Shown here: positions 3,477-55,593 of the stretch, one piece after another
Position numbering within the stretch: the stretch's first letter is position 1
How the letters are laid out: each line of letters begins with the position of its first letter
Source of the DNA: a bacterium UBP11_UBA4055
GTDB taxonomy: Bacteria > UBA4055
NCBI GenBank assembly: GCA_002382735.1
Contig: DFZN01000059.1
Span: 1 to 64,000 of the forward strand
Reading direction: 5' to 3'
Length of the DNA: 64,000 bases
Notes under the pieces: model-generated
What the model was told of the DNA's origin: nothing
The model's database searches: none
Seen by the model: the letters and a program-made list of their open reading frames with translations, nothing else
Translations under genes and position numbers: made by a program

Positions 3477-5426
3477 TTATTTACTCGGCCTTCTGGATTT
3501 AAGATAATTAATCCTGTCTTTCAATGGTCTGGTATTAACTAACTTCTTAATGAAAGTTCCGTCCCCTTCCTTACTAGGAATAGGCATAGGATCGATCATT
3601 TTATATAGCCCGCCGGTATAATAATACCACGGTTCAAAACATTCCATGATCTCAGAAAGATTACCTGTACCGGCCTGGTACGCATACTGATATTCTTCTT
3701 CAGGATCAAACGAAGACGACACATCGTCCCACTCATAGAAGAACTCATCTGAAAGGTTTCCGTATGTGTCGTAACCGAAAGTCGCCTTTTCATTTTTAAT
3801 CCAGACTGATGCATTGTTTTGCAAATTTATATTTTCGATCAATTTATCACCTGAGTAGGCATATTTCGTGCTGTCTTCCCAATAATTATACTCGCTGAAA
3901 CCACCATAAGTATGTTCGCTGGCGATCAGATTATTAACATAAGAATAATCTGAAGTTTCATAATTGAGCCATGTATTTCCGCCATCTTCAGTGTAAGAAG
4001 TTATCATTTTAATCGCTAAGTTTCCGCTATAGATGACTTTAAATTTCGCGAAATCATCGAAAAACACTTCATCCAGTTTGCCGTTAAGATAAGTGAATGT
4101 CTCCTCTTCCTGCCCTACTAATGTGCCGTATTCATATTCTGAAAACTGCGTTTGAGTCATAAGTTCTCCGGAATATAAGCAATCAGCGACACCCTTCCAC
4201 TCTTCGTTCCCATAGTCGTCATATTCAATTTCAGTTATTTTTGTCGGTTTACCGCCTGTATCGTATTCCAACAGAATCTCATAAGAAAGTGTCTCCTGTT
4301 TTGCAGGAGGGGTGGTCACGGGTTCTGTCATTCTGTATGGTTTCTTTGTGGTAGTGTTTGCGTAATGCAAATAGGAAGACCTTTGTTCTCCAACAGCTTC
4401 ACGGGAAACTATTCTGTTGTAGCTGTCATAATTATAGGTTGCTGTACTATTCCATTCAGGGTACAAATAATCTGTATAAATCTCCGATACAACTCTCCAA
4501 ACTGAACCGGGGTCAGGAGATGTTACATTTATCTGAATTAATTCGGCATCGCTGAATTCTCCGTCGCTCACTGTACATGTAATTGTATGAGTCGATACAT
4601 TGTTCGGTGCCGTCCATGTTACGCTTGAACCTGTTGTGGAAGACAAAATACCGCCTGTCTTGGTCCATGTATAAGTCAGGTCGTCCCCGTTAGCATCCGT
4701 CGCCGTACATGTGATCTCCGTAGAGCCGCCTGATACCACTGACGAAGGATCCGCAGTAAGACTTGAAATGACCGGCGCGACATTTTCAGCAACGACGATC
4801 GTCACAGATTTTTCCACAGAAGTTCTTACTGTGGGATCGCTTACCTTACATGTTACAATATATGATCCCTCGGCTGCAGGAGCTGTCCACTGCGCGAACT
4901 GGTTCGCTCCGTAAATTGAGCCGCCGATGGAAGTCCATTCGTATGTCAGAACATCACCGTCCGCATCAGTCGCGTTACAGATCAGATTCGTTGTCGTGGA
5001 AGGTTCAATAGAATAATCGGTCGCCGTCAGACTTATTATTACAGGCGGATTTGTAGGAGTTGCCGTAACTTCAATATTAACTCTTTCATTATCTGAAGAG
5101 GGGCCGTCGCTTACATAAACAGTAATTGTGTAGATCCCGACTTCTGCAGGAGCTGTCCATGTTTTTTGCGCCGTCATTATTCCTGAGAATGTCCCGCTTG
5201 TGCAGGTCCAGTTATAACTTAACGCATCTCCGTCTTCGTCTGTAGCATTGCAATACAGGTCCGATGTGCCGCCCGGCGCGACTTGGACAGCCGTGGAAAT
5301 AAGTTCGCTGATAACAGGCGCATTGTTCGTCGGCGGAGCTGTGGGGTTGCTGTCATCATCTGAACATGACCATACCGTTATGCCCAATAATACCGCTAAG
5401 GCCAACGATGTTAAAGTTTTCCTCAT
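3477..5426 (-). CDS. Lipoprotein with four tandem PKD/Ig-like repeats and a C-terminal YD/RHS-like Tyr/Asp-rich region (649 aa)
   Basis: Lipobox LLGITVWSCSDD. Four repeats each carry NATDxDGDxLxYxWT (the PKD signature). The C-terminal 330 aa are rich in YxYD/YDxxGN-like motifs. SD GGAGG lies 7 nt upstream. Confidence 0.7.
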   Translation of the reverse strand: MRKTLTSLALAVLLGITVWSCSDDDSNPTAPPTNNAPVISELISTAVQVAPGGTSDLYCNATDEDGDALSYNWTCTSGTFSGIMTAQKTWTAPAEVGIYTITVYVSDGPSSDNERVNIEVTATPTNPPVIISLTATDYSIEPSTTTNLICNATDADGDVLTYEWTSIGGSIYGANQFAQWTAPAAEGSYIVTCKVSDPTVRTSVEKSVTIVVAENVAPVISSLTADPSSVVSGGSTEITCTATDANGDDLTYTWTKTGGILSSTTGSSVTWTAPNNVSTHTITCTVSDGEFSDAELIQINVTSPDPGSVWRVVSEIYTDYLYPEWNSTATYNYDSYNRIVSREAVGEQRSSYLHYANTTTKKPYRMTEPVTTPPAKQETLSYEILLEYDTGGKPTKITEIEYDDYGNEEWKGVADCLYSGELMTQTQFSEYEYGTLVGQEEETFTYLNGKLDEVFFDDFAKFKVIYSGNLAIKMITSYTEDGGNTWLNYETSDYSYVNNLIASEHTYGGFSEYNYWEDSTKYAYSGDKLIENINLQNNASVWIKNEKATFGYDTYGNLSDEFFYEWDDVSSSFDPEEEYQYAYQAGTGNLSEIMECFEPWYYYTGGLYKMIDPMPIPSKEGDGTFIKKLVNTRPLKDRINYLKSRRPSK

Positions 5427-5523
5427 GATAAACCTCCTCTTTTATTAACTCTTTTCGAATCTGCGTCTTGCTTTTGGTGAATATGTAGGTGTAATCTGTG
5501 GAATTAATTATGGATTGTCAAGT

Positions 5524-22720: not shown

Positions 22721-23548
22721 CTAAGGGATAAGATAATCCGAGTAAGAATCGCTGAAAGAAGGAGTGCAGCGTACACCGTGTGCTTTTCCCCATTTTACCA
22801 TCATGTCGCACGCGTACTGGTTGTCAGCTTCGAAATAGCCGTAACGGTCCCAGCCATCCATCTGATAGTATGTGAATACGCCGTTCTTCATGGTTGAATC
22901 TCCGTCATAGGAATAGTTCTTGGTCCCGGAAGCGACCGCTACGACTCTGCCTTTAGCCTTGCCCAGAGCTGTCTTGAACGCTCCTATATTGCAGGCGTCA
23001 AAAGTAAATCCCATCTTCATGCATGTCGCTTTTGAGAATTTTCCGGCCATCCACGAATAGCTCAGATAATACATATCGGTAGATATCATGTTGCCGTTGT
23101 ATCCGTGTCCTGAATAAACGAAGAATACCTCGTTGCCTGCAACAGATCTGCTCGCCAGAGTGTTCATGGCCGATTCAATTGCGCTTTTTGTGGCTGACAA
23201 GTCTGTTATCTTGGTAACGCTGTAGCCTTTGCTCTGAAGGAAAGCAGCCCAGTCGGCGGCATCGTCATCGCAGTAGTTAAGATCGTTGACTGTTCCGGCA
23301 TAGTTCGAAATACCTATTACCAGAGCGTATTTAGCGCCTTTTGAGGCTGTAGCGTCCAGTTCCACCGGTTCTGAATCAGAAAGTGTGAACTTAGCCTTAA
23401 CTTCTTCGGGTCTGTCATCTACGAATTCAGGTCTCTGATACAGAACACCGTCTCCGCTATCATCAGTTTCGAGCGGACTCTGTTTTGAACAGCTTACGAA
23501 CACGAACACGGACATTGCGATCATCAGCGCGACCATCAGTTTTTTCAT
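22721..23548 (-). CDS. Lipoprotein, clan CD (caspase/legumain-like) cysteine peptidase family
   Basis: Lipobox VFVFVSCS. KYALVIGISNY, VFFVYSGHGYNG (a His-Gly catalytic motif) and FDACNIG (a catalytic Cys) match the caspase-hemoglobinase fold. The start was moved to the internal Met (MKKLMV) with SD GGGAGG. Confidence 0.55.
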   Translation of the reverse strand: MKKLMVALMIAMSVFVFVSCSKQSPLETDDSGDGVLYQRPEFVDDRPEEVKAKFTLSDSEPVELDATASKGAKYALVIGISNYAGTVNDLNYCDDDAADWAAFLQSKGYSVTKITDLSATKSAIESAMNTLASRSVAGNEVFFVYSGHGYNGNMISTDMYYLSYSWMAGKFSKATCMKMGFTFDACNIGAFKTALGKAKGRVVAVASGTKNYSYDGDSTMKNGVFTYYQMDGWDRYGYFEADNQYACDMMVKWGKAHGVRCTPSFSDSYSDYLIP

Positions 23549-23786
23549 GATACCTCCCAATTTTAAAATTTTTTCCGCAATATACACATCTTAAAGCGGC
23601 CTCACTCTGTCTCTTTTCAAAACATGGCTTCTTTAGTTTTTACTTTTCCGGATCATATCAACCCGTAAGGGCTACTGGTCGGCATTTGGTCTTAACTGAC
23701 AAGTAATCTATATTACCTCAAATAATTTGTCAATAGAAATTATATATTTTTTTTTATCGTTCTGGGGCTGCAATATCAGTTCTTCA

Positions 23787-23815
23787 AATAAAAAAGGAAC
23801 CTTTTTGCGGGTCCC
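23787..23815 (-). terminator. Rho-independent terminator after the 35-aa small gene
   Basis: The minus-strand RNA reads GGGACC-CGCAAAAA-GGUUCC (with a G·U wobble pair) followed by UUUUUUAUUU. Confidence 0.5.
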
Positions 23816-23848
23816 TTTTCGTTGAGGAGTGAGTGTTGAGGGGTTCTT

Positions 23849-23956
23849 TTAGAATTTGTGCCTGTTGATGCTTAATTTTCTCCTGAAGTCGAATGTTACC
23901 TGGGTTTTTATCATCTCTTTCAGGTCCTGATTCTTAAATTTTTTATCTATCTTCAT
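23849..23956 (-). CDS. Stand-alone small ORF (35 aa, Lys/Arg-rich): MKIDKKFKNQDLKEMIKTQVTFDFRRKLSINRHKF
   Basis: SD AAGGAG sits 7 nt upstream of the ATG. A TTGGAA-N17-TATATT promoter lies about 60 nt upstream. An intrinsic terminator sits immediately downstream. The ORF is below the ORF-track length cutoff. Confidence 0.35.
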   Translation of the reverse strand: MKIDKKFKNQDLKEMIKTQVTFDFRRKLSINRHKF

Positions 23957-24086
23957 TTTGCGCTCCTTTTTTATCTGTTTATTTCAATTACACAGGTAAT
24001 ATAACTACAGGAACACGGCATTCCAACCTAAGTCCGACGAAATGCATAAATGAGGGTGTGAAAGGTAGTAAAGATGCTATACAGGG

Positions 24087-24102
24087 ATTAATCAGCTGTT
24101 GC
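24087..24102. repeat. 16-bp direct repeat ATTAATCAGCTGTTGC (left copy)
   Basis: Identical to 24988..25003. The two copies bracket the NTase/83-aa cassette, 901 bp apart. Confidence 0.8.
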
Positions 24103-24343
24103 TTTTACGGGAGAGGATCTCTTTGATCTTTCTGAACTGACTTTGAACAAAGATCAGACTTTCTAAATGCTCTTTATGATTTATTTCTAACTTTTCCGAG
24201 GAAAATATCTTCTTTCCGAATTCGTACAAAGCGGCAACTCTTTCAACGCAGACCGAAGGGTCGTAATTCCTCTTTTGCTCCAACTCCCATTCGTTGAACT
24301 TCTTGAGTTTGCTTAAATATTGCCTGACATCTTCAGCGTTCAT
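24092..24343 (-). CDS. Small protein (83 aa) partnered with the upstream nucleotidyltransferase, which it overlaps by 11 nt
   Basis: Translationally coupled to the NTase gene. Helical and charged. No HEPN Rx4-6H motif was found. Confidence 0.4.
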   Translation of the reverse strand: MNAEDVRQYLSKLKKFNEWELEQKRNYDPSVCVERVAALYEFGKKIFSSEKLEINHKEHLESLIFVQSQFRKIKEILSRKSNS

Positions 24344-24887
24344 TTTTCATCTTTTCGATATTTATTACCATCACCGGCCTGTCCAGTATCTCTGAGAAAA
24401 AATTTATCTGTTTTAAAAGATATTTCCAGTCTAAGTTTTTATTGAACTTAATCAGATTTTCTATATCCTGCCAGTCTTTATCTCTTTCTGAAATAGATTT
24501 CTGCACAATAAGATCTTCCACGGAAATCATCTTTAACGATATTCCAAACAATTCCCTCTCGCACGCCCTTGTTATAGATTCAATTTCATACTCCAAACCT
24601 GTAAACACGATGTCGGCTTTAACATTTTCGATCTCTATGGGCAAGACCATTGTAGTCCTGATGAACTGAACAGGGTCTTTAGGCAGAATTGTGGAAACGG
24701 CTGAGAGTTTCTTTACAAGCTCTGCCAGAGAATCTTCGGAAATATCATGCAGAATTTTTATGTCAATATCATAAGTCATCCTCTCGTAACCGTAAACACC
24801 GGTTGCAAGTCCGCCGAAAACCATGTAAGGAATCTTCTCTTTTTCGAAGAATTCTTTAAGCTTTTTCAGCGAAAGTGTCATATCCAT
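24333..24887 (-). CDS. Pol-beta-superfamily nucleotidyltransferase-domain protein (184 aa)
   Basis: VFGGLATGVYGYERMTYDIDIKI gives the GG/GS...[DE]hD NTase signature. The C-terminal roughly 90 aa form a helical domain. The gene sits in an AT-rich island. Confidence 0.6.
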   Translation of the reverse strand: MDMTLSLKKLKEFFEKEKIPYMVFGGLATGVYGYERMTYDIDIKILHDISEDSLAELVKKLSAVSTILPKDPVQFIRTTMVLPIEIENVKADIVFTGLEYEIESITRACERELFGISLKMISVEDLIVQKSISERDKDWQDIENLIKFNKNLDWKYLLKQINFFSEILDRPVMVINIEKMKNER

Positions 24888-24987
24888 TTATCAGCCCTGA
24901 TTTAATTATTAAATATACACAACATCTGAGATAAAATCAAATGTAGTTTTTTTCTTTGTCAGTCGGTATAACTATGTAGTCGCGACG

Positions 24988-25003
24988 AATTAATCAGCTG
25001 TTG
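24988..25003. repeat. 16-bp direct repeat ATTAATCAGCTGTTGC (right copy)
   Basis: A perfect copy of 24087..24102. A degenerate third copy (ATTAAT-TGTTGC) lies at 26777..26788. Confidence 0.8.
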
Positions 25004-25144
25004 CCGAATACAAATGCTTCTGGAATTTGATGAAAGTGTTTCTTATGGCGAAGTATTTGATTTTGAGCAGGTCAGGTATCTTATCTTCAAACAGTTCTTC
25101 TATGCCTGTTTCAATATATTTTGAAAGTACAAATTCTAAAAATT
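24989..25144 (-). pseudogene. Short stop-bounded ORF remnant, possibly the C-terminal stub of a type I restriction enzyme R subunit
   Basis: A 51-codon open frame with no start (EFLEFVLSKYIETGIEELFEDKIPDLLKIKYFAIRNTFIKFQKHLYSATAD*). It lies immediately downstream of the hsdM and DUF1016 remnants. The family assignment is weak and made from memory. Confidence 0.2.
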
Positions 25145-25898
25145 CTTATAGTAATCTTTGTTGTCTATTTGTATTCGTTTTTGCCTCTCAACGAAAGTAA
25201 ATCCTACTCCGAGTTCAAGAATAAATTTCTCAAGTTCTCTTAAAATTGCATCTTCCAAATCCTTTTCAAGATACCTGTCTTTCAAACCGAGGAAATGTAA
25301 GAATATACGGATCTTTTAACAATACTTCGGGTGATGGCTTATTTCCTTTTCTCATTTCTTCCAATTCATAAGCAATCAGTTCTTCAGGCTTCTTTGACAA
25401 AGCAGTCCTTTCAAATAATTGATAATTGATTCTTTCCTGAAGCTGCCGCGTATTCCAACTATGCAGTTTGCACATTTCGATATAGAAATTTCTTTTTAAA
25501 GGATCGTCAATATAAATACACGATCTTATTTGTGTCCATGATAATTGTCTACGCAATGAGTAGAGAATCTTTCTGTCCGGAATTGTCTCAGCAACGCGGA
25601 TACAATGTCGTAAGACTTTCTCACCCCATCCTTCACCATATACAGATGATAAATATTCGGATAATTCAATAATAACATATTTACCATATTCAGCATGTTT
25701 ATTTTGTAAAATTACATTGTTTATTAAATTCCCAATATTCCAGTACAAACTTGTTAATTCTTGATTTGCAGCAGATGCTACGAGTTTTCTTGATTCATCA
25801 ATTAATTTTCTTGCAGAAGTAAATAATTTCTTAATACCTGTTATCTCTTTTTTTTGAAGAGATATTTTCCCGTATTTAATAATTTCTTTTTTCTTCAT
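25140..25898 (-). pseudogene. DUF1016/YhcG-family (PDDEXK-like) gene, frameshifted and C-terminally truncated
   Basis: The 210-aa ORF matches the YhcG N-terminal two thirds (LYWNIGNLI..., SWTQIR, DDPLKRNFYIEMC, DPYILTFPRF). The conserved continuation EKDLEDAILRELEKFILELGVGFTFVERQKRIQIDNKDYY is present, but in another frame and cut by a stop. The remaining C-terminal nuclease core is absent. Confidence 0.65.
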
Positions 25899-26583
25899 AA
25901 AAGCTCCCTGACGGATTTGAGTATTTCTACGCTTTGTTCGTCAAGCTCGGAAATTTCATCGAGGATCTCGACCGGTTCACGCAGAACAGCCTCATCCTTT
26001 TTGTTGGGATTTTTTACGCTCAGATCGCAGGTCTCTGTGTTGATGTCGGCTACTTTGACCGTCCATGAATTAAGAGAATCAGCTTTGGTTTTCTGTAGTT
26101 CGATAAATTCCGCAAGATCATTTTCGTTCAGCGGATTTGTTTTACCCAGGTTCCTGCCCGGATTGAGCTGATAATACCATATCTTTTTCGTTGAAACGCC
26201 TTTGTCTAAGAACAGAACGACATTGTAGCGGTCTTTTTCCTGTATGTCCGAAATATTCTCCGACAGCGTGTTCGTATGAATGATATTGGGCGAATCTATG
26301 CCGTGGAAGATCATATTCATAATGCCGATGATGTATGCGAGCGATTTTTTCTCTTTGCCGTAAAAGGTCTTCTTCTGAAGCGTTTCAAGGTCTTTCGTAG
26401 TCAGATTTTTGCTTGATTTAAGATATTCGTAAGCTTCGCACAAGTCTTTTTGTCCTTCTCGAGGTCGTCAATATACTTTAGGAAAAGGATCCACGAAGTC
26501 TGCTCCACATAGTCAAGCTCGCTGGAACATCCCGCATCTTTCCAGAGCACATCATCAATATTTTTAAAAACCTGTTCGAACAT
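25895..26583 (-). pseudogene. hsdM: Type I R-M methyltransferase (HsdM) remnants in two frames
   Basis: The 26401..26583 ORF is an HsdM N-terminal fragment (LWKDAGCSSELDYVEQTSWILFLKYIDDLE). The 25895..26443 ORF holds AYEYLK...TFYGKE...IMNMIFHGIDSPNIIHTNTLSE...RYNVVL, then jumps straight to the C-terminal IWYYQ...VKNPNKKDE region. The NPPF catalytic motif and about 200 internal residues are missing. Confidence 0.65.
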
Positions 26584-26834
26584 GGCTGTTTTTCCATAGG
26601 ATGAAATATGAAGAGAAAATACGGGTGAATGAAAGGAAAGGCAAGAGACGAAATGCAGAAATGCGTGTCCGAAAGAATGTAAGAAGCCATAAGAAAACTG
26701 TAATCAAAAGGTCATTTATGCGAAGTGAAGTTTTAACAGTATTTAATTGCCCGAATAATAATGTCATTGCCGATTAATTGTTGCTCTGAATTCCATAATA
26801 CTCTATATTTCAACCAAATAAGCGGGGATCTGAG

Positions 26835-53179: not shown

Positions 53180-54379
53180 TTATTTCACAGGGAATATATT
53201 GATCCGCTCTCCCCTGTTATCATAGTCGAATTCCTTCCCGTAAACCTTTTCCTCAAGCTGATCGCCGATGGAATTTATATAATCGTCAATAGAATTCGTG
53301 ATCCAAATCTGATATTCCTCGTAAGTGACCTTCCTGACTTCTTTCGCGCCTGAAGAAACCACATCGAGAAGTATCTGTTTGTATTCCCTTCCCTGAGGCA
53401 GATCGGAGAACATCAGAATGTACTCCTTACCCTTATCGAGCTGCTCTTTCCAGTAGCCCTTCACCTGATTCATAATTAGCGGCATCAGTTTTTTGATAGC
53501 CTGGTCGATGTTGGCGTCATAGGCAGTATTATTTCCCCATATCTCATCCGAATATCCGTTCTGAACACCCAGCAGTTTAGCAGTCGAAGCATTGAATATC
53601 TTAGCCGTCGCCTTTGCCTTCTTCTTACCGTTTCCGAGGTCTTCAAGTATTATCGCGACAGTAACATAAATATCTGCCTTCAACTTCTTAGCCAGTATCT
53701 CGGCCATATCGACATCCTCACCCGGAGCGATCTGTTTCATGCTCATATCATCCTCTATCATCGCGTTCAGCTGGTCGAGATCATAGACATCGTAACGATT
53801 GACCGTAAAATACTGATTGATGTTGTTGATAGCCTGTTCTGTGTATCTCTGATCATACTGCACTCCCATTGGAGCATAGAAGACCACCATCGAAGGGTTC
53901 CCGAGCTGTGAAAGAAGGATGCCCAGAGCCTCAAGGTCATTCAGCACAATGTCCTTTGTCACAGCCGCCATGATGGTCACCGCCCAGCTTCCGTCGGCCT
54001 CTCTCGCCTGATTTAGTATGGAATAAGATTTAACAAAACCCTCGCTCTTTGCCAGAACCTGATCCTTTACTGTCATATAGTTCTGCATTTCCTGTTCGGA
54101 TACCAGATATGTACCGATGGCGGTCGAAATCGCATTCCTCTGGGCATCCCTTATTGCGGCGTCCCTGTCCGCTCCGATCCCCTGAGCCTCGACTTCGGTA
54201 ATGTTATGGTCGTTCGAAAACTGGCTGATCTTATTTCCCGCAGGGAGTTTAGGATCAGCTGTTTTTTCAGTAACAGCAGACTGATCATTTTCATTCCCAA
54301 AAGGTGTTACATACTTTACGGAAACACATGATGATAAAAACAGCATAAGCGTAATAATTACAGATAACCTGATCTTCAT
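53180..54379 (-). CDS. Lipoprotein with an LPP20/FlgP-like N-domain plus a conserved roughly 250-aa C-domain (paralog 1)
   Basis: Lipobox FLSSCVSV. The segment EAQGIGADRDAAIRDAQRNAISTAIGTYLVSEQ... matches the LPP20 pattern. Across the core it is about 85% identical to 54481..55593. Confidence 0.5.
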   Translation of the reverse strand: MKIRLSVIITLMLFLSSCVSVKYVTPFGNENDQSAVTEKTADPKLPAGNKISQFSNDHNITEVEAQGIGADRDAAIRDAQRNAISTAIGTYLVSEQEMQNYMTVKDQVLAKSEGFVKSYSILNQAREADGSWAVTIMAAVTKDIVLNDLEALGILLSQLGNPSMVVFYAPMGVQYDQRYTEQAINNINQYFTVNRYDVYDLDQLNAMIEDDMSMKQIAPGEDVDMAEILAKKLKADIYVTVAIILEDLGNGKKKAKATAKIFNASTAKLLGVQNGYSDEIWGNNTAYDANIDQAIKKLMPLIMNQVKGYWKEQLDKGKEYILMFSDLPQGREYKQILLDVVSSGAKEVRKVTYEEYQIWITNSIDDYINSIGDQLEEKVYGKEFDYDNRGERINIFPVK

Positions 54380-54442
54380 GATACTCTCCTGTTTAGTTCA
54401 CCGATGCAATATGCTAAATAATTTCTAAATTTTCAACTAAAT

Positions 54443-54470
54443 AAAAAAAGGGCGGTTCAATTCCGCCCTT
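54443..54470 (-). terminator. Bidirectional rho-independent terminator between the two lipoprotein paralogs
   Basis: GGGCGG-UUCAAUU-CCGCCC stem flanked by an A-run and a T-run. Confidence 0.65.
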
Positions 54471-54480
54471 AAATGTATGT

Positions 54481-55593
54481 CTATTTGACAGGGAATATGT
54501 CTATACGGTCTCCCCTGTTCTTGTAGTCGAAATCGCTTCCGTAAATTTCCTCGATCGCATCGCCTATCGAATCTATGTATGTATCTATATCGGAATTTAC
54601 CCAGACCTGATATTCGCTTCCGGCGGTGACTACTTTCACTTCCTTGGCTCCGTTCTGAAGCGCAGCGAGCACCGCGCTCTTTACTTTTCTTCCCTCAGGG
54701 AGTTTGCTGAAAAGTATCACATACTGCTTTCCCTTGTCGAGCTGCTCTTTCCAGTAGCCCTTGACCTGGTTCATAATGAGCGGCATAAGCTTCTTACATG
54801 CCTGATCGATGTTGGCGTCATAAGCGGTAACATTTCCGAATATCTCGTCGGAATATCCATTCTGTACACCGAGAAGTTTGGCCGTTGACGCGTTGAATAT
54901 CTTAGCTGTGGCTTTTGCCTTCTTCTTGCCGTTACCCAGATCTTCAAGTATCAGCGAAACAGTAACATAAATGTCGGACTTCAACTTCTTGGCCAGTATC
55001 TGGGCCATGTCAACATCCTCGCCGATAGAGATCTGCTTCATGCTCATATCGTCCTCAATCATCGCGTTAAGCTGGTCAAGGTCATACACATCGTACCTGT
55101 TCGTTGTAAAATACTGGTTTATCATATTAATTCCCTGCTCAGTGAACCTCTGGTCGTACGGTTCGCCTTTAGGCGCGTAGAAAACGACTATTGAAGGATT
55201 GTCGAGCTGTGACAAAAGTATCCCGAGAGCTTCAAGATCGTTCATGATGATATCCTTTGTGACTGCCGCTTTTATAGTCACTGTCCAGGCACCGTCAGGT
55301 CCTTTGGACTTATCTAACAGTTCATACGACTTTACGAACCCTTCGCTCTTGGCCAGAACCTGATCCTTAACGGTCATATAGTTCTGCATTTCCTGTTCGG
55401 ACACAAGGTATGTTCCTATGGCTGTTTCGATCGCGTTCCTTTTTGCGACATTTATCGCCGCCTGCATGTTCATTCCCGTACCTTGAACTTCTACTTCGGT
55501 AATGTTATGGTCGTGCATATACTCGCTTGCCTGTGCAAATATCATCGGGCATACAGCTATCAGTATCCCTAACAATACAGTTCTGAATTTCAT
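54481..55593 (-). CDS. LPP20/FlgP-like secreted protein (paralog 2)
   Basis: Signal peptide with no lipobox Cys directly before the mature region (MIFAQAS). Core nearly identical to paralog 1. Confidence 0.5.
   Translation of the reverse strand: MKFRTVLLGILIAVCPMIFAQASEYMHDHNITEVEVQGTGMNMQAAINVAKRNAIETAIGTYLVSEQEMQNYMTVKDQVLAKSEGFVKSYELLDKSKGPDGAWTVTIKAAVTKDIIMNDLEALGILLSQLDNPSIVVFYAPKGEPYDQRFTEQGINMINQYFTTNRYDVYDLDQLNAMIEDDMSMKQISIGEDVDMAQILAKKLKSDIYVTVSLILEDLGNGKKKAKATAKIFNASTAKLLGVQNGYSDEIFGNVTAYDANIDQACKKLMPLIMNQVKGYWKEQLDKGKQYVILFSKLPEGRKVKSAVLAALQNGAKEVKVVTAGSEYQVWVNSDIDTYIDSIGDAIEEIYGSDFDYKNRGDRIDIFPVK

Follow-up and report, generated by a model that had tools for sequence, protein, structure and literature searches.

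The window analysed here, a 64,000-nucleotide (nt) stretch of contig DFZN01000059.1 (assembly GCA_002382735.1) from the bacterium UBP11_UBA4055, carries on its minus strand an overlapping gene pair that encodes a nucleotidyltransferase (NTase) of 184 amino acids (aa) and a basic partner protein of 83 aa, and that lies between two exact copies of a 16-bp sequence. By predicted fold and active site the NTase is MenT1-like, yet it belongs to a sister sequence family (DUF6036/DUF2204); sequence comparison indicates that the partner is probably its antitoxin. The explanation that best covers the observations jointly is a toxin-antitoxin (TA)-like module of the MenT/AbiEii type next to 16-mers that stem from the 3' ends of two hsdR genes, and we hold it to be moderately probable. 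The initial annotation had proposed an uncharacterised two-gene TA or defence module. A conserved pair in a defence island was indeed found, but its kind is known, because the NTase matches MenT1 in structure and in catalytic residues. New here are the antitoxin candidate and the reverse gene order; known is the NTase toxin of the MenT/AbiEii kind.

The nucleotidyltransferase and its likeness to MenT1

The NTase, a minimal MenT1-like enzyme and putative toxin, is encoded at 24333..24887 on the minus strand. Its open reading frame (ORF) passed the curated gathering cut-offs of two Pfam families of uncharacterised NTases in the NTP_transf clan, DUF6036 (38.4 bits, cut-off 23.6, E = 1.4e-9) and DUF2204 (25.9 bits, cut-off 20.3, E = 9e-6). 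The AlphaFold2 (AF2) model (pLDDT 93.8, pTM 0.87) consists of an alpha/beta lobe followed by a four-helix bundle. The fold of MenT/AbiEii proteins is bi-lobed, with an NTase beta-sheet lobe and a helical bundle (PMC10435456). A Foldseek search of the Protein Data Bank (PDB) returned MenT1 (Rv0078A; 8an5/8an4/8rr5) as all five best matches, which covered the full length (176-198 columns) with E-values of about 1e-8 and template modelling (TM) scores of 0.68-0.76; ANT(2'')-Ia, LnuA and TM1012 ranked after MenT1 (TM 0.46-0.63). A profile search of the PDB sequences placed AbiGii (9hlo) and MenT1 first, and the AbiEii model of PADLOC matched the NTase weakly (3e-4).

In an alignment of 12 NTase homologues (A1), the residues G25-G26, R36, T38, D40, D42, D92, E124-D125, K130, S133, R135, K137-D138-W139 and D141 were invariant. 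Motifs I and II of Pol-beta-type NTases (hG[GS] ... DxD) are present, with a threonine in the phospho-acceptor position two residues before the first aspartate, and G25-G26, T38, D40 and D42 align to the GG...T-R-D-V-D of MenT1. The C-terminal motif of the MenT/AbiEii proteins, a catalytic lysine and a distal aspartate, is represented by the invariant K130 and D141. In the profile alignment, T38, D40, D42, K130 and D141 of the window NTase fall on T39, D41, D43, K137 and D152 of MenT1, respectively (numbering of the papers; K137 and D152 are K136 and D151 in the PDB chain index). MenT1 auto-phosphorylates at T39 and depends on D41, K137 and D152 for activity (PMC11375011). The NTase of 184 aa described in the initial annotation was thereby confirmed.

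A promoter-like site (TTGATT-17-TATATT) was found by promoter scan upstream of the NTase gene at 24912..24940 on the minus strand, and the ~53-60 nt before the NTase ATG are conserved by blastn in L005, L126/127 and L043/44 (L-numbers designate the loci fetched for comparison). The resistance-family models of NCBIfam gave no match to the NTase, and a resistance enzyme of the Lnu/ANT type was rejected on this ground and on that of structural matches weaker than those to MenT1. A tblastn search of plasmids and phages with the NTase returned no phage match and one distant, differently built Calothrix protein. In a literature search DUF6036 was mentioned nowhere, and the single mention of DUF2204 was irrelevant.

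The partner protein and the polarity of the pair

The partner gene (24092..24343, minus strand) encodes the putative antitoxin, a basic protein with an FNxWE motif and three helices in the AF2 model, and its start overlaps the NTase stop by 11 nt (ATGAACGCTGA). Homologous partners, ORFs of 70-97 aa that abut the NTase stop or overlap it by 4, 11 or 14 nt, were found downstream of the NTase in ~50 loci from Delongbacteria, Cloacimonadota, Marinimicrobia, Chlorobium, Calditrichota, Desulfobacteraceae and a gammaproteobacterium. Wherever the contig extends past the NTase, no intact NTase of the close family (down to ~38% identity) was found without a partner. The partner has no match in Pfam, NCBIfam or PADLOC and no fold match, and its family, which comprises ~129 clusters at 50% identity, is new. 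In the family alignment (A3), N17, E20 and L39 are invariant and W19, L60 and L63 nearly so (motif (R/K)(F/Y)NxWE ... EHL). Some 75 residues, distributed over the three helices, are conserved, and beyond ...(K/R)IK the C-terminal tail varies completely. No HEPN Rx4-6H motif is conserved in the partner, A3 having no invariant R or H, and no HEPN profile or fold matched it. The claims of the initial annotation about this pair held: the overlap and the ~50 loci support translational coupling, the model supports a helical small protein, and the pair is unlike MNT-HepT and AbiEi-AbiEii, having neither a HEPN motif or fold nor an upstream COG5340-type antitoxin. The small ORF is also conserved, and the NTase gene is not an Lnu/ANT resistance gene.

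The pattern of gene decay bears on the polarity of the pair. At seven loci (L123, L126/127, L128, L033, L035, L036 and L067) the NTase gene is truncated or frameshifted while the partner beside it is intact; the reverse, an intact NTase with no partner, was found at none. In L123 and L126, the NTase gene has undergone independent internal deletions, but its promoter and its start remain, as does the partner start coupled to it. This asymmetry fits an NTase that is harmful when unopposed and a partner that is protective, the opposite of MNT-HepT. Two-gene units are formed by distant DUF6036 NTases as well, with other partner families encoded upstream; such partner swapping is typical of TA families.

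We propose a TA or abortive-infection module of the MenT type. In it, the NTase would be the toxin and would block translation by extending tRNA 3' ends, and the partner would bind and neutralise it by occlusion of the active site and/or by auto-phosphorylation of T38, the counterpart of MenT1 T39. MenT1 itself is neutralised by a short helical protein through sequestration and induced auto-phosphorylation (PMC10435456, PMC11375011). The module, with its own promoter, resides in a decaying defence island that contains type I restriction-modification (R-M) and YhcG genes, and it has been relocated repeatedly among such islands.

Compared with MenA1-MenT1 (Rv0078B-Rv0078A) of M. tuberculosis, the window pair has an NTase of similar size (184 versus ~190 aa) with the same alpha/beta lobe and C-terminal four-helix bundle, the best structural match (TM up to 0.76), a conserved GG...T-x-D-x-D loop, catalytic lysine and distal aspartate, and a partner that, like MenA1, is short, helical and without a DNA-binding domain. 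In contrast, sequence identity to MenT1 is ~20%, the window NTase falls in DUF6036/DUF2204 and below the AbiEii threshold, and the partner represents another family (three helices, FNxWE, basic) that is encoded downstream with an overlapping start instead of upstream; toxicity and target are here predictions. The AbiEi-AbiEii and AbiGi-AbiGii systems share with the window module the NTase superfamily, weak profile matches (AbiEii; AbiGii 9hlo) and the defence-island context, but AbiEii and AbiGii, by profile and chain length, measure ~240-300 aa and are paired with an upstream COG5340-family antitoxin, and the window module has neither feature. COG5340-family antitoxins are DNA-binding regulators. 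Those of AbiEii and AbiGii belong to this family and are encoded upstream of the toxin (PMC10435456, PMC11375011).

Several observations weigh against a MenT/AbiEii-type module. The NTase remained below the cut-off of the Pfam AbiEii family (PF08843; 14.5 versus 22.5 bits, E = 0.034), which a fragment of MenT1 passes with 34.2 bits. An hhalign comparison of A1 with the single MenT1 fragment gave a probability of 13%, and the link to MenT1 therefore rests on structure and aligned residues and not on profile statistics. Furthermore, the usual charge pattern is reversed: the NTase, with a pI of 5.0, is acidic, whereas the partner, with a pI of 9.1 (family median 9.5), is basic. The partner has no relationship to MenA1, and its gene lies downstream of the NTase gene, not upstream. 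Finally, some of the frameshifted NTases may be assembly errors in metagenome-assembled genomes.

The polarity could also be that of MNT-HepT (type VII TA), with the NTase as an antitoxin that modifies, for example AMPylates, a small helical toxin. As in MNT-HepT, the gene of a Pol-beta-type NTase is followed by that of a small helical protein, canonical MNT-HepT pairs adjoin the module in L005-L007 and L126, and the partner is basic like many toxins. However, the partner lacks the invariant Rx4-6H and any match to a HEPN profile or fold, and the NTase matches MenT1 over its full length and, like the MenT/AbiEii toxins, has a K...D motif and an additional helical bundle at its C-terminus. Moreover, decay at the seven loci hits the NTase and spares the partner; loci with the reverse, as a toxic partner would predict, were not found. 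We therefore regard this polarity as very unlikely. A non-toxic two-subunit enzyme, in which the NTase and a basic nucleic-acid-binding or regulatory subunit act on RNA or on a small molecule, is also improbable, if somewhat less so; it could take the form of an NTase of the antibiotic type or of an activity accessory to the R-M system. An acidic NTase with a basic partner would suit such an enzyme, as would the Foldseek matches to ANT(2'')-Ia, LnuA and TM1012, the position of some distant DUF6036 genes beside housekeeping genes such as that for isocitrate dehydrogenase, and the embedding of the pair in the R-M operon of L124. MenT1, on the other hand, clearly outranks the resistance NTases, the NCBIfam resistance families do not match, a two-subunit enzyme does not predict loci in which only the partner survives, and TA and defence modules typically show what is seen here, namely a patchy distribution, many genomic contexts, AT-rich islands and MNT-HepT neighbours.

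PrrC is a tRNA-targeting anticodon nuclease whose gene lies inside the EcoprrI hsd operon. The L124 pair directly upstream of hsdR, and the partner homologue of L128 after hsdS and a DUF488 gene, are placed in a comparable way; PrrC is an anticodon nuclease and not an NTase, and the likeness is one of gene placement alone.

The NTase toxins of the MenT/AbiEii type, which are actively studied, act by blocking the acceptor ends of tRNA, and their antitoxins control them by inducing auto-phosphorylation. The locus shows that DUF6036 and DUF2204, both uncharacterised, include enzymes of the MenT1 type that share its catalytic and phospho-acceptor residues and are combined here with an unrelated downstream partner family, and in other DUF6036 branches with still other partners. 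Such natural toxin-partner combinations bear on whether induced auto-phosphorylation is a general means of control and whether the modules act in phage defence beside R-M systems.

Two further observations concern the partners. In L128 (1207-2400), a member of the partner family stands without an NTase; hsdS lies upstream of it, and a DUF488 gene immediately before it. The other conserved partners of the distant DUF6036 NTases (L069-L111, of high G+C content, and L039, L040, L064 and L074), all encoded upstream, are either ~150-190 aa long and end in ...EPLxFPPLARL..., or 68-74 aa long and end in ...DPLEGLDVNIRM...; many of the high-G+C genes adjoin an isocitrate-dehydrogenase-like gene.

The 16-bp repeats and the relocation of the module

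On the plus strand, ATTAATCAGCTGTTGC occurs exactly at 24087-24102 and at 24989-25004, and these are its two copies in the window. The first position agrees with the initial annotation, whereas the second copy starts one base later than given there (24988-25003), so that the exact search yields a spacing of 902 instead of 901. None of 100 dinucleotide shuffles contained two copies (expected 0.03), and by our own estimate from the window length ~0.05 exact 16-mer pairs not more than 3 kb apart are expected in 64 kb. As had been noted, one ORF terminates in each copy and takes its last codons and stop codon from it, the frames being different. Read on the minus strand, copy 1 (24087..24102) gives the ...SNS-stop of the partner (...KSNS*) and is identical to the last 16 nt of hsdR; copy 2 (24989..25004) forms the ATAD-stop of an hsdR remnant, ...FIKFQKHLYSATAD (...SATAD). 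This C-terminal remnant of 51 codons (24990..25145, minus strand), recognised by translation, is fused upstream to a truncated yhcG; it has a weak Pfam EcoEI_R_C match and a tblastn match to the hsdR of L124 with E = 3e-23.

The 16-mer was searched exactly and with three mismatches in all fetched loci. The exact pair was found only in contigs of the same locus (L001-L004); beyond these, L008 has a single copy, and diverged versions are present in L123 and at the hsdR end of L124. The 16-mer is therefore not a family-wide site, and homologous cassettes elsewhere do not have it, an outcome that the initial annotation had named as refuting its proposal. L008, a sister species with a syntenic locus and 94% NTase identity, has one exact copy at the partner stop and none upstream, and L123 has a 13/16 version at the partner stop, that is, at the position of copy 1 only. 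Copy 1 is thus an inherited part of the partner 3' end in a small clade. The independent hsdR of L124 ends in the same ...FIKFQKHLYSATAD*, encoded by GCCACAGCTGATTAA; the last 57 nt are 93% identical, the counterpart of the 16-mer is GCCACAGCTGATTAAA (14/16), and directly after it follows the 5' box of the separator, a ~300-nt element described below. The NTase-partner pair lies immediately upstream of hsdR in this locus (L124, 259-3407). Judged by these alignments, copy 2 is the native 3' end of the decayed hsdR.

Between copy 2 and the cassette promoter lies a stub of ~50 nt, the 3' end of a convergent gene (24946..24993, plus strand, start approximate), which encodes ...VFFFVSRYNYVVATN (...YNYVVATN) and whose stop overlaps copy 2. 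Its positions 24973-24992 are identical in 20 of 20 nt to the end of a gene of L126 that encodes 381 aa and ends in ...FYYVVATN*. Since the stop of this neighbouring stub lies inside copy 2, the junction looks like a microhomology join.

The simplest history would start from an ancestor with the order NTase-partner-hsdR-separator, in which a deletion left the last 16 nt of hsdR as the non-conserved tail of the partner. Later, another hsdR of the same lineage would have been placed upstream and joined at the left junction through ATTA microhomology to the stub of the convergent gene. Illegitimate recombination, and not a target duplication of the transposition type, would thereby have brought the copies side by side. 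The repeats, which the initial annotation took for the bracket and mobility signature of a cassette, lose this meaning with copy 2 as the native hsdR end, the sister species having copy 1 only and a stub intervening: the bracket is an accident of island decay.

Alternatively, the repeats could be a target-site duplication or an attachment-site pair produced when an 886-bp cassette inserted at the hsdR 3' end, and would then be the immediate trace of its mobility. Two observations oppose the hsdR-terminus origin here: direct repeats exact in 16 of 16 positions are natural under a duplication, and the L124 hsdR end with the separator 5' box resembles an empty site. Cassettes of L006, L007 and L048 are, moreover, flanked by duplications of unique sequence. 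An insertion is nevertheless rather unlikely in our view. No transposase, no inverted terminal repeats (by eye), no nearby recombinase and no conserved repeat at other cassettes were found; 16 bp exceeds the usual length of transposition duplications; the segment beside copy 2 is the stub of another gene, with its stop codon inside the repeat; L008 and L123 have copy 1 only; and the downstream 'repeat' of L006/L007 differs from the upstream gene end at synonymous sites only. A form of the duplication model that also counts against two hsdR termini, with the 16 nt duplicated in a common ancestor and the left copy then lost in L008 and L123, is conceivable to the same limited degree. Under either history, judged by the loci compared, the cassette family does not use the 16-mer as a site of recombination. 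Caution is accordingly due when mobile cassettes are called from repeats, as a perfect 16-bp bracket can arise from the 3'-end remnants of genes in a decaying island.

The pair itself was found in at least seven genomic neighbourhoods. At 65-94% identity, it precedes groES in the window, L008 and L123 and a V-ATPase operon in L005 and L133, and it lies within a type I R-M operon in L124; further pairs lie beside LamG-type and type II/IIL R-M genes (L006, L007, L046, L009) and in other contexts in L010, L043, L047 and L048. The conserved unit extends from ~55-60 nt upstream of the ATG, including the promoter, to the partner stop. The number of different neighbourhoods indicates that the module relocates as a self-contained unit with its own promoter. 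The proposal that it moves as a cassette thus stands as regards relocation between defence islands, and falls as regards the 16-bp repeats as its signature.

Direct repeats on both sides of the cassette were found in about a dozen independent loci, and they are heterogeneous: separator copies in L005, lineage-specific hairpin or low-complexity repeats in other phyla, and a paralogue 3' stub with a terminator in L006/L007, where the two copies differ at synonymous sites only and the downstream repeat is therefore a paralogue stub and not a fresh duplication. These flanks fit recombination through flanking homology, together with illegitimate joins in repeat-rich islands, and not a dedicated mobility mechanism. 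The cassette consists of two genes only and contains no transposase or recombinase, nor was one found within 10 kb on either side of the array in L133. A transposon or insertion sequence (IS)-type cassette with target duplication was rejected, there being no transposase, no 16-mer at other cassettes and no uniformity in the flanking repeats. Integron attC sites are imperfect palindromes (RYYYAAC...GTTRRRY) at the cassette 3' end, in an array near intI; by eye, the 16-mer and the separator contain neither RYYYAAC/GTTRRRY (R''/R') cores nor a palindrome.

Some of the flanks were observed as follows. In a sister clade (L006, 5833-5925 and 6776-6917; L007, L046, L047 and L009), AAACCTT bounds the cassette on both sides, and a conserved terminator hairpin (GCCCGA...TCGGGC) lies upstream of it. 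In L006 and L007, a 21-nt stub encoding YVVAVN* follows the cassette, with synonymous-only differences from the upstream gene end. The cassette of L048 is flanked by a 186-nt, 97% identical duplication (3733-3918 and 4870-5055) of the 5' part of the downstream gene, and a second DUF6036-like ORF (5023-5451) starts inside the downstream copy; this layout resembles single-crossover (Campbell-type) integration. In Cloacimonadota, Chlorobium and Calditrichota, lineage-specific hairpin repeats flank the pair (L012, L015, L014, L022 and L025; for instance 594-684 and 1537-1611 in L012, 3933-3977 and 4793-4837 in L015), one example being a 45-nt imperfect palindrome, CAATCATTCCCAACTCACG...CGAGTCGGGCCTGATTGG; these repeats may be attC-like sites or REP-like elements.

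The separator element and the surrounding island

The module lies in an island (23590-26830) that has 36% G+C versus 47-48% in the flanks, in agreement with the AT-rich island described initially. On the minus strand, the order is hsdM fragments, yhcG, hsdR remnant, convergent-gene stub, promoter-like site, NTase and partner, followed by a ~300-nt separator, which contains a mini-ORF and a terminator, and then by a caspase-like gene, a zinc-ribbon-like ORF and groES/groEL. The bacterium itself is Candidatus Delongbacteria-like.

The separator (23781..24090, minus strand), delimited by nhmmer, by an alignment of its copies (A2) and by promoter scan, directly follows the partner. It begins with a 5' box (CACACCC...GCATTTCGTCGGACTT), continues with a promoter-like site (TTGGAA-17-TATATT, 24026-23998), a strong Shine-Dalgarno (SD) sequence and a mini-ORF of 35 aa (23849-23956), and closes with a CTCACTCCTCAACG box and a terminator at ~23790-23819. 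The terminator was identified by eye and from compensatory changes in its stem; the terminator scan did not call it. By nhmmer, 19-21 copies occur in related loci (L126, 5468-10514; L005, 510-3055; L123, 2987-4029; L008, 3792-3942 and 4791-5088), among them five in a 5-kb stretch of L126/L133. In such defence-type arrays of related genomes, a copy separates each cassette from the next. Every copy comprises the 5' box, the promoter-like site, the SD sequence, a basic mini-ORF of 35-40 codons, the CTCACTCCTCAACG box and the terminator, and all point the same way, also where the genes of a cassette run in the opposite direction. The mini-ORF peptides follow the pattern ...K.I.K.D..FKFR....HR..F; 13 distinct versions of the mini-ORF are intact, and every indel in it has a length divisible by three. 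These peptides have no match in Pfam or NCBIfam and are hypothetical in the source annotation, and a scan of viral contigs with the separator core returned four chance matches, none with the element. The separator could be the repeat unit of an undescribed, integrase-less cassette-array system in Candidatus Delongbacteria-like bacteria, in which recombination between separators shuffles defence and TA cassettes, the MenT1-like pair among them, between hot spots of the chromosome, but we consider this doubtful. If it were so, the mini-protein or the boxes of the separator would take part in recombination or insulate the cassettes.

At the other end of the island, a decayed type I hsdM in two fragments (25895..26583, minus strand) was recognised by Pfam N6_Mtase and HsdM_N and by PADLOC MTase_I (3.5e-40). 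It is followed by a decayed yhcG/DUF1016 gene (25136..25898, minus strand; Pfam DUF1016_N 4.7e-34, YhcG_C 1.3e-12; PADLOC PDC-S02, a candidate defence family, 3e-63), which is divided into an N-terminal part (25266-25898) and a frameshifted PD-(D/E)xK fragment (25136-25285). The decayed type I R-M system of the initial annotation is thus present as regards hsdM, but hsdR is not simply missing, since its last 51 codons are still in place. A contig of the same locus from another strain (L003) has a longer hsdM of 274 aa, and the R-M decay is therefore polymorphic in the population.

An Rfam scan of 23500-25400 yielded sub-threshold snoRNA noise only. The caspase-like gene (Peptidase_C14; 22721-23587, minus strand), located between the separator and the zinc-ribbon-like ORF, encodes a signal-peptide-like N-terminus; as it is absent from the syntenic site of L008, it is a further variable insert at this hot spot. 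Elsewhere in the window, at ~53436-55500, many exact matches of 14-27 nt recur at a constant spacing of 1301 nt, which points to a diverged tandem duplication of a ~1.3-kb segment, probably representing two paralogous genes.

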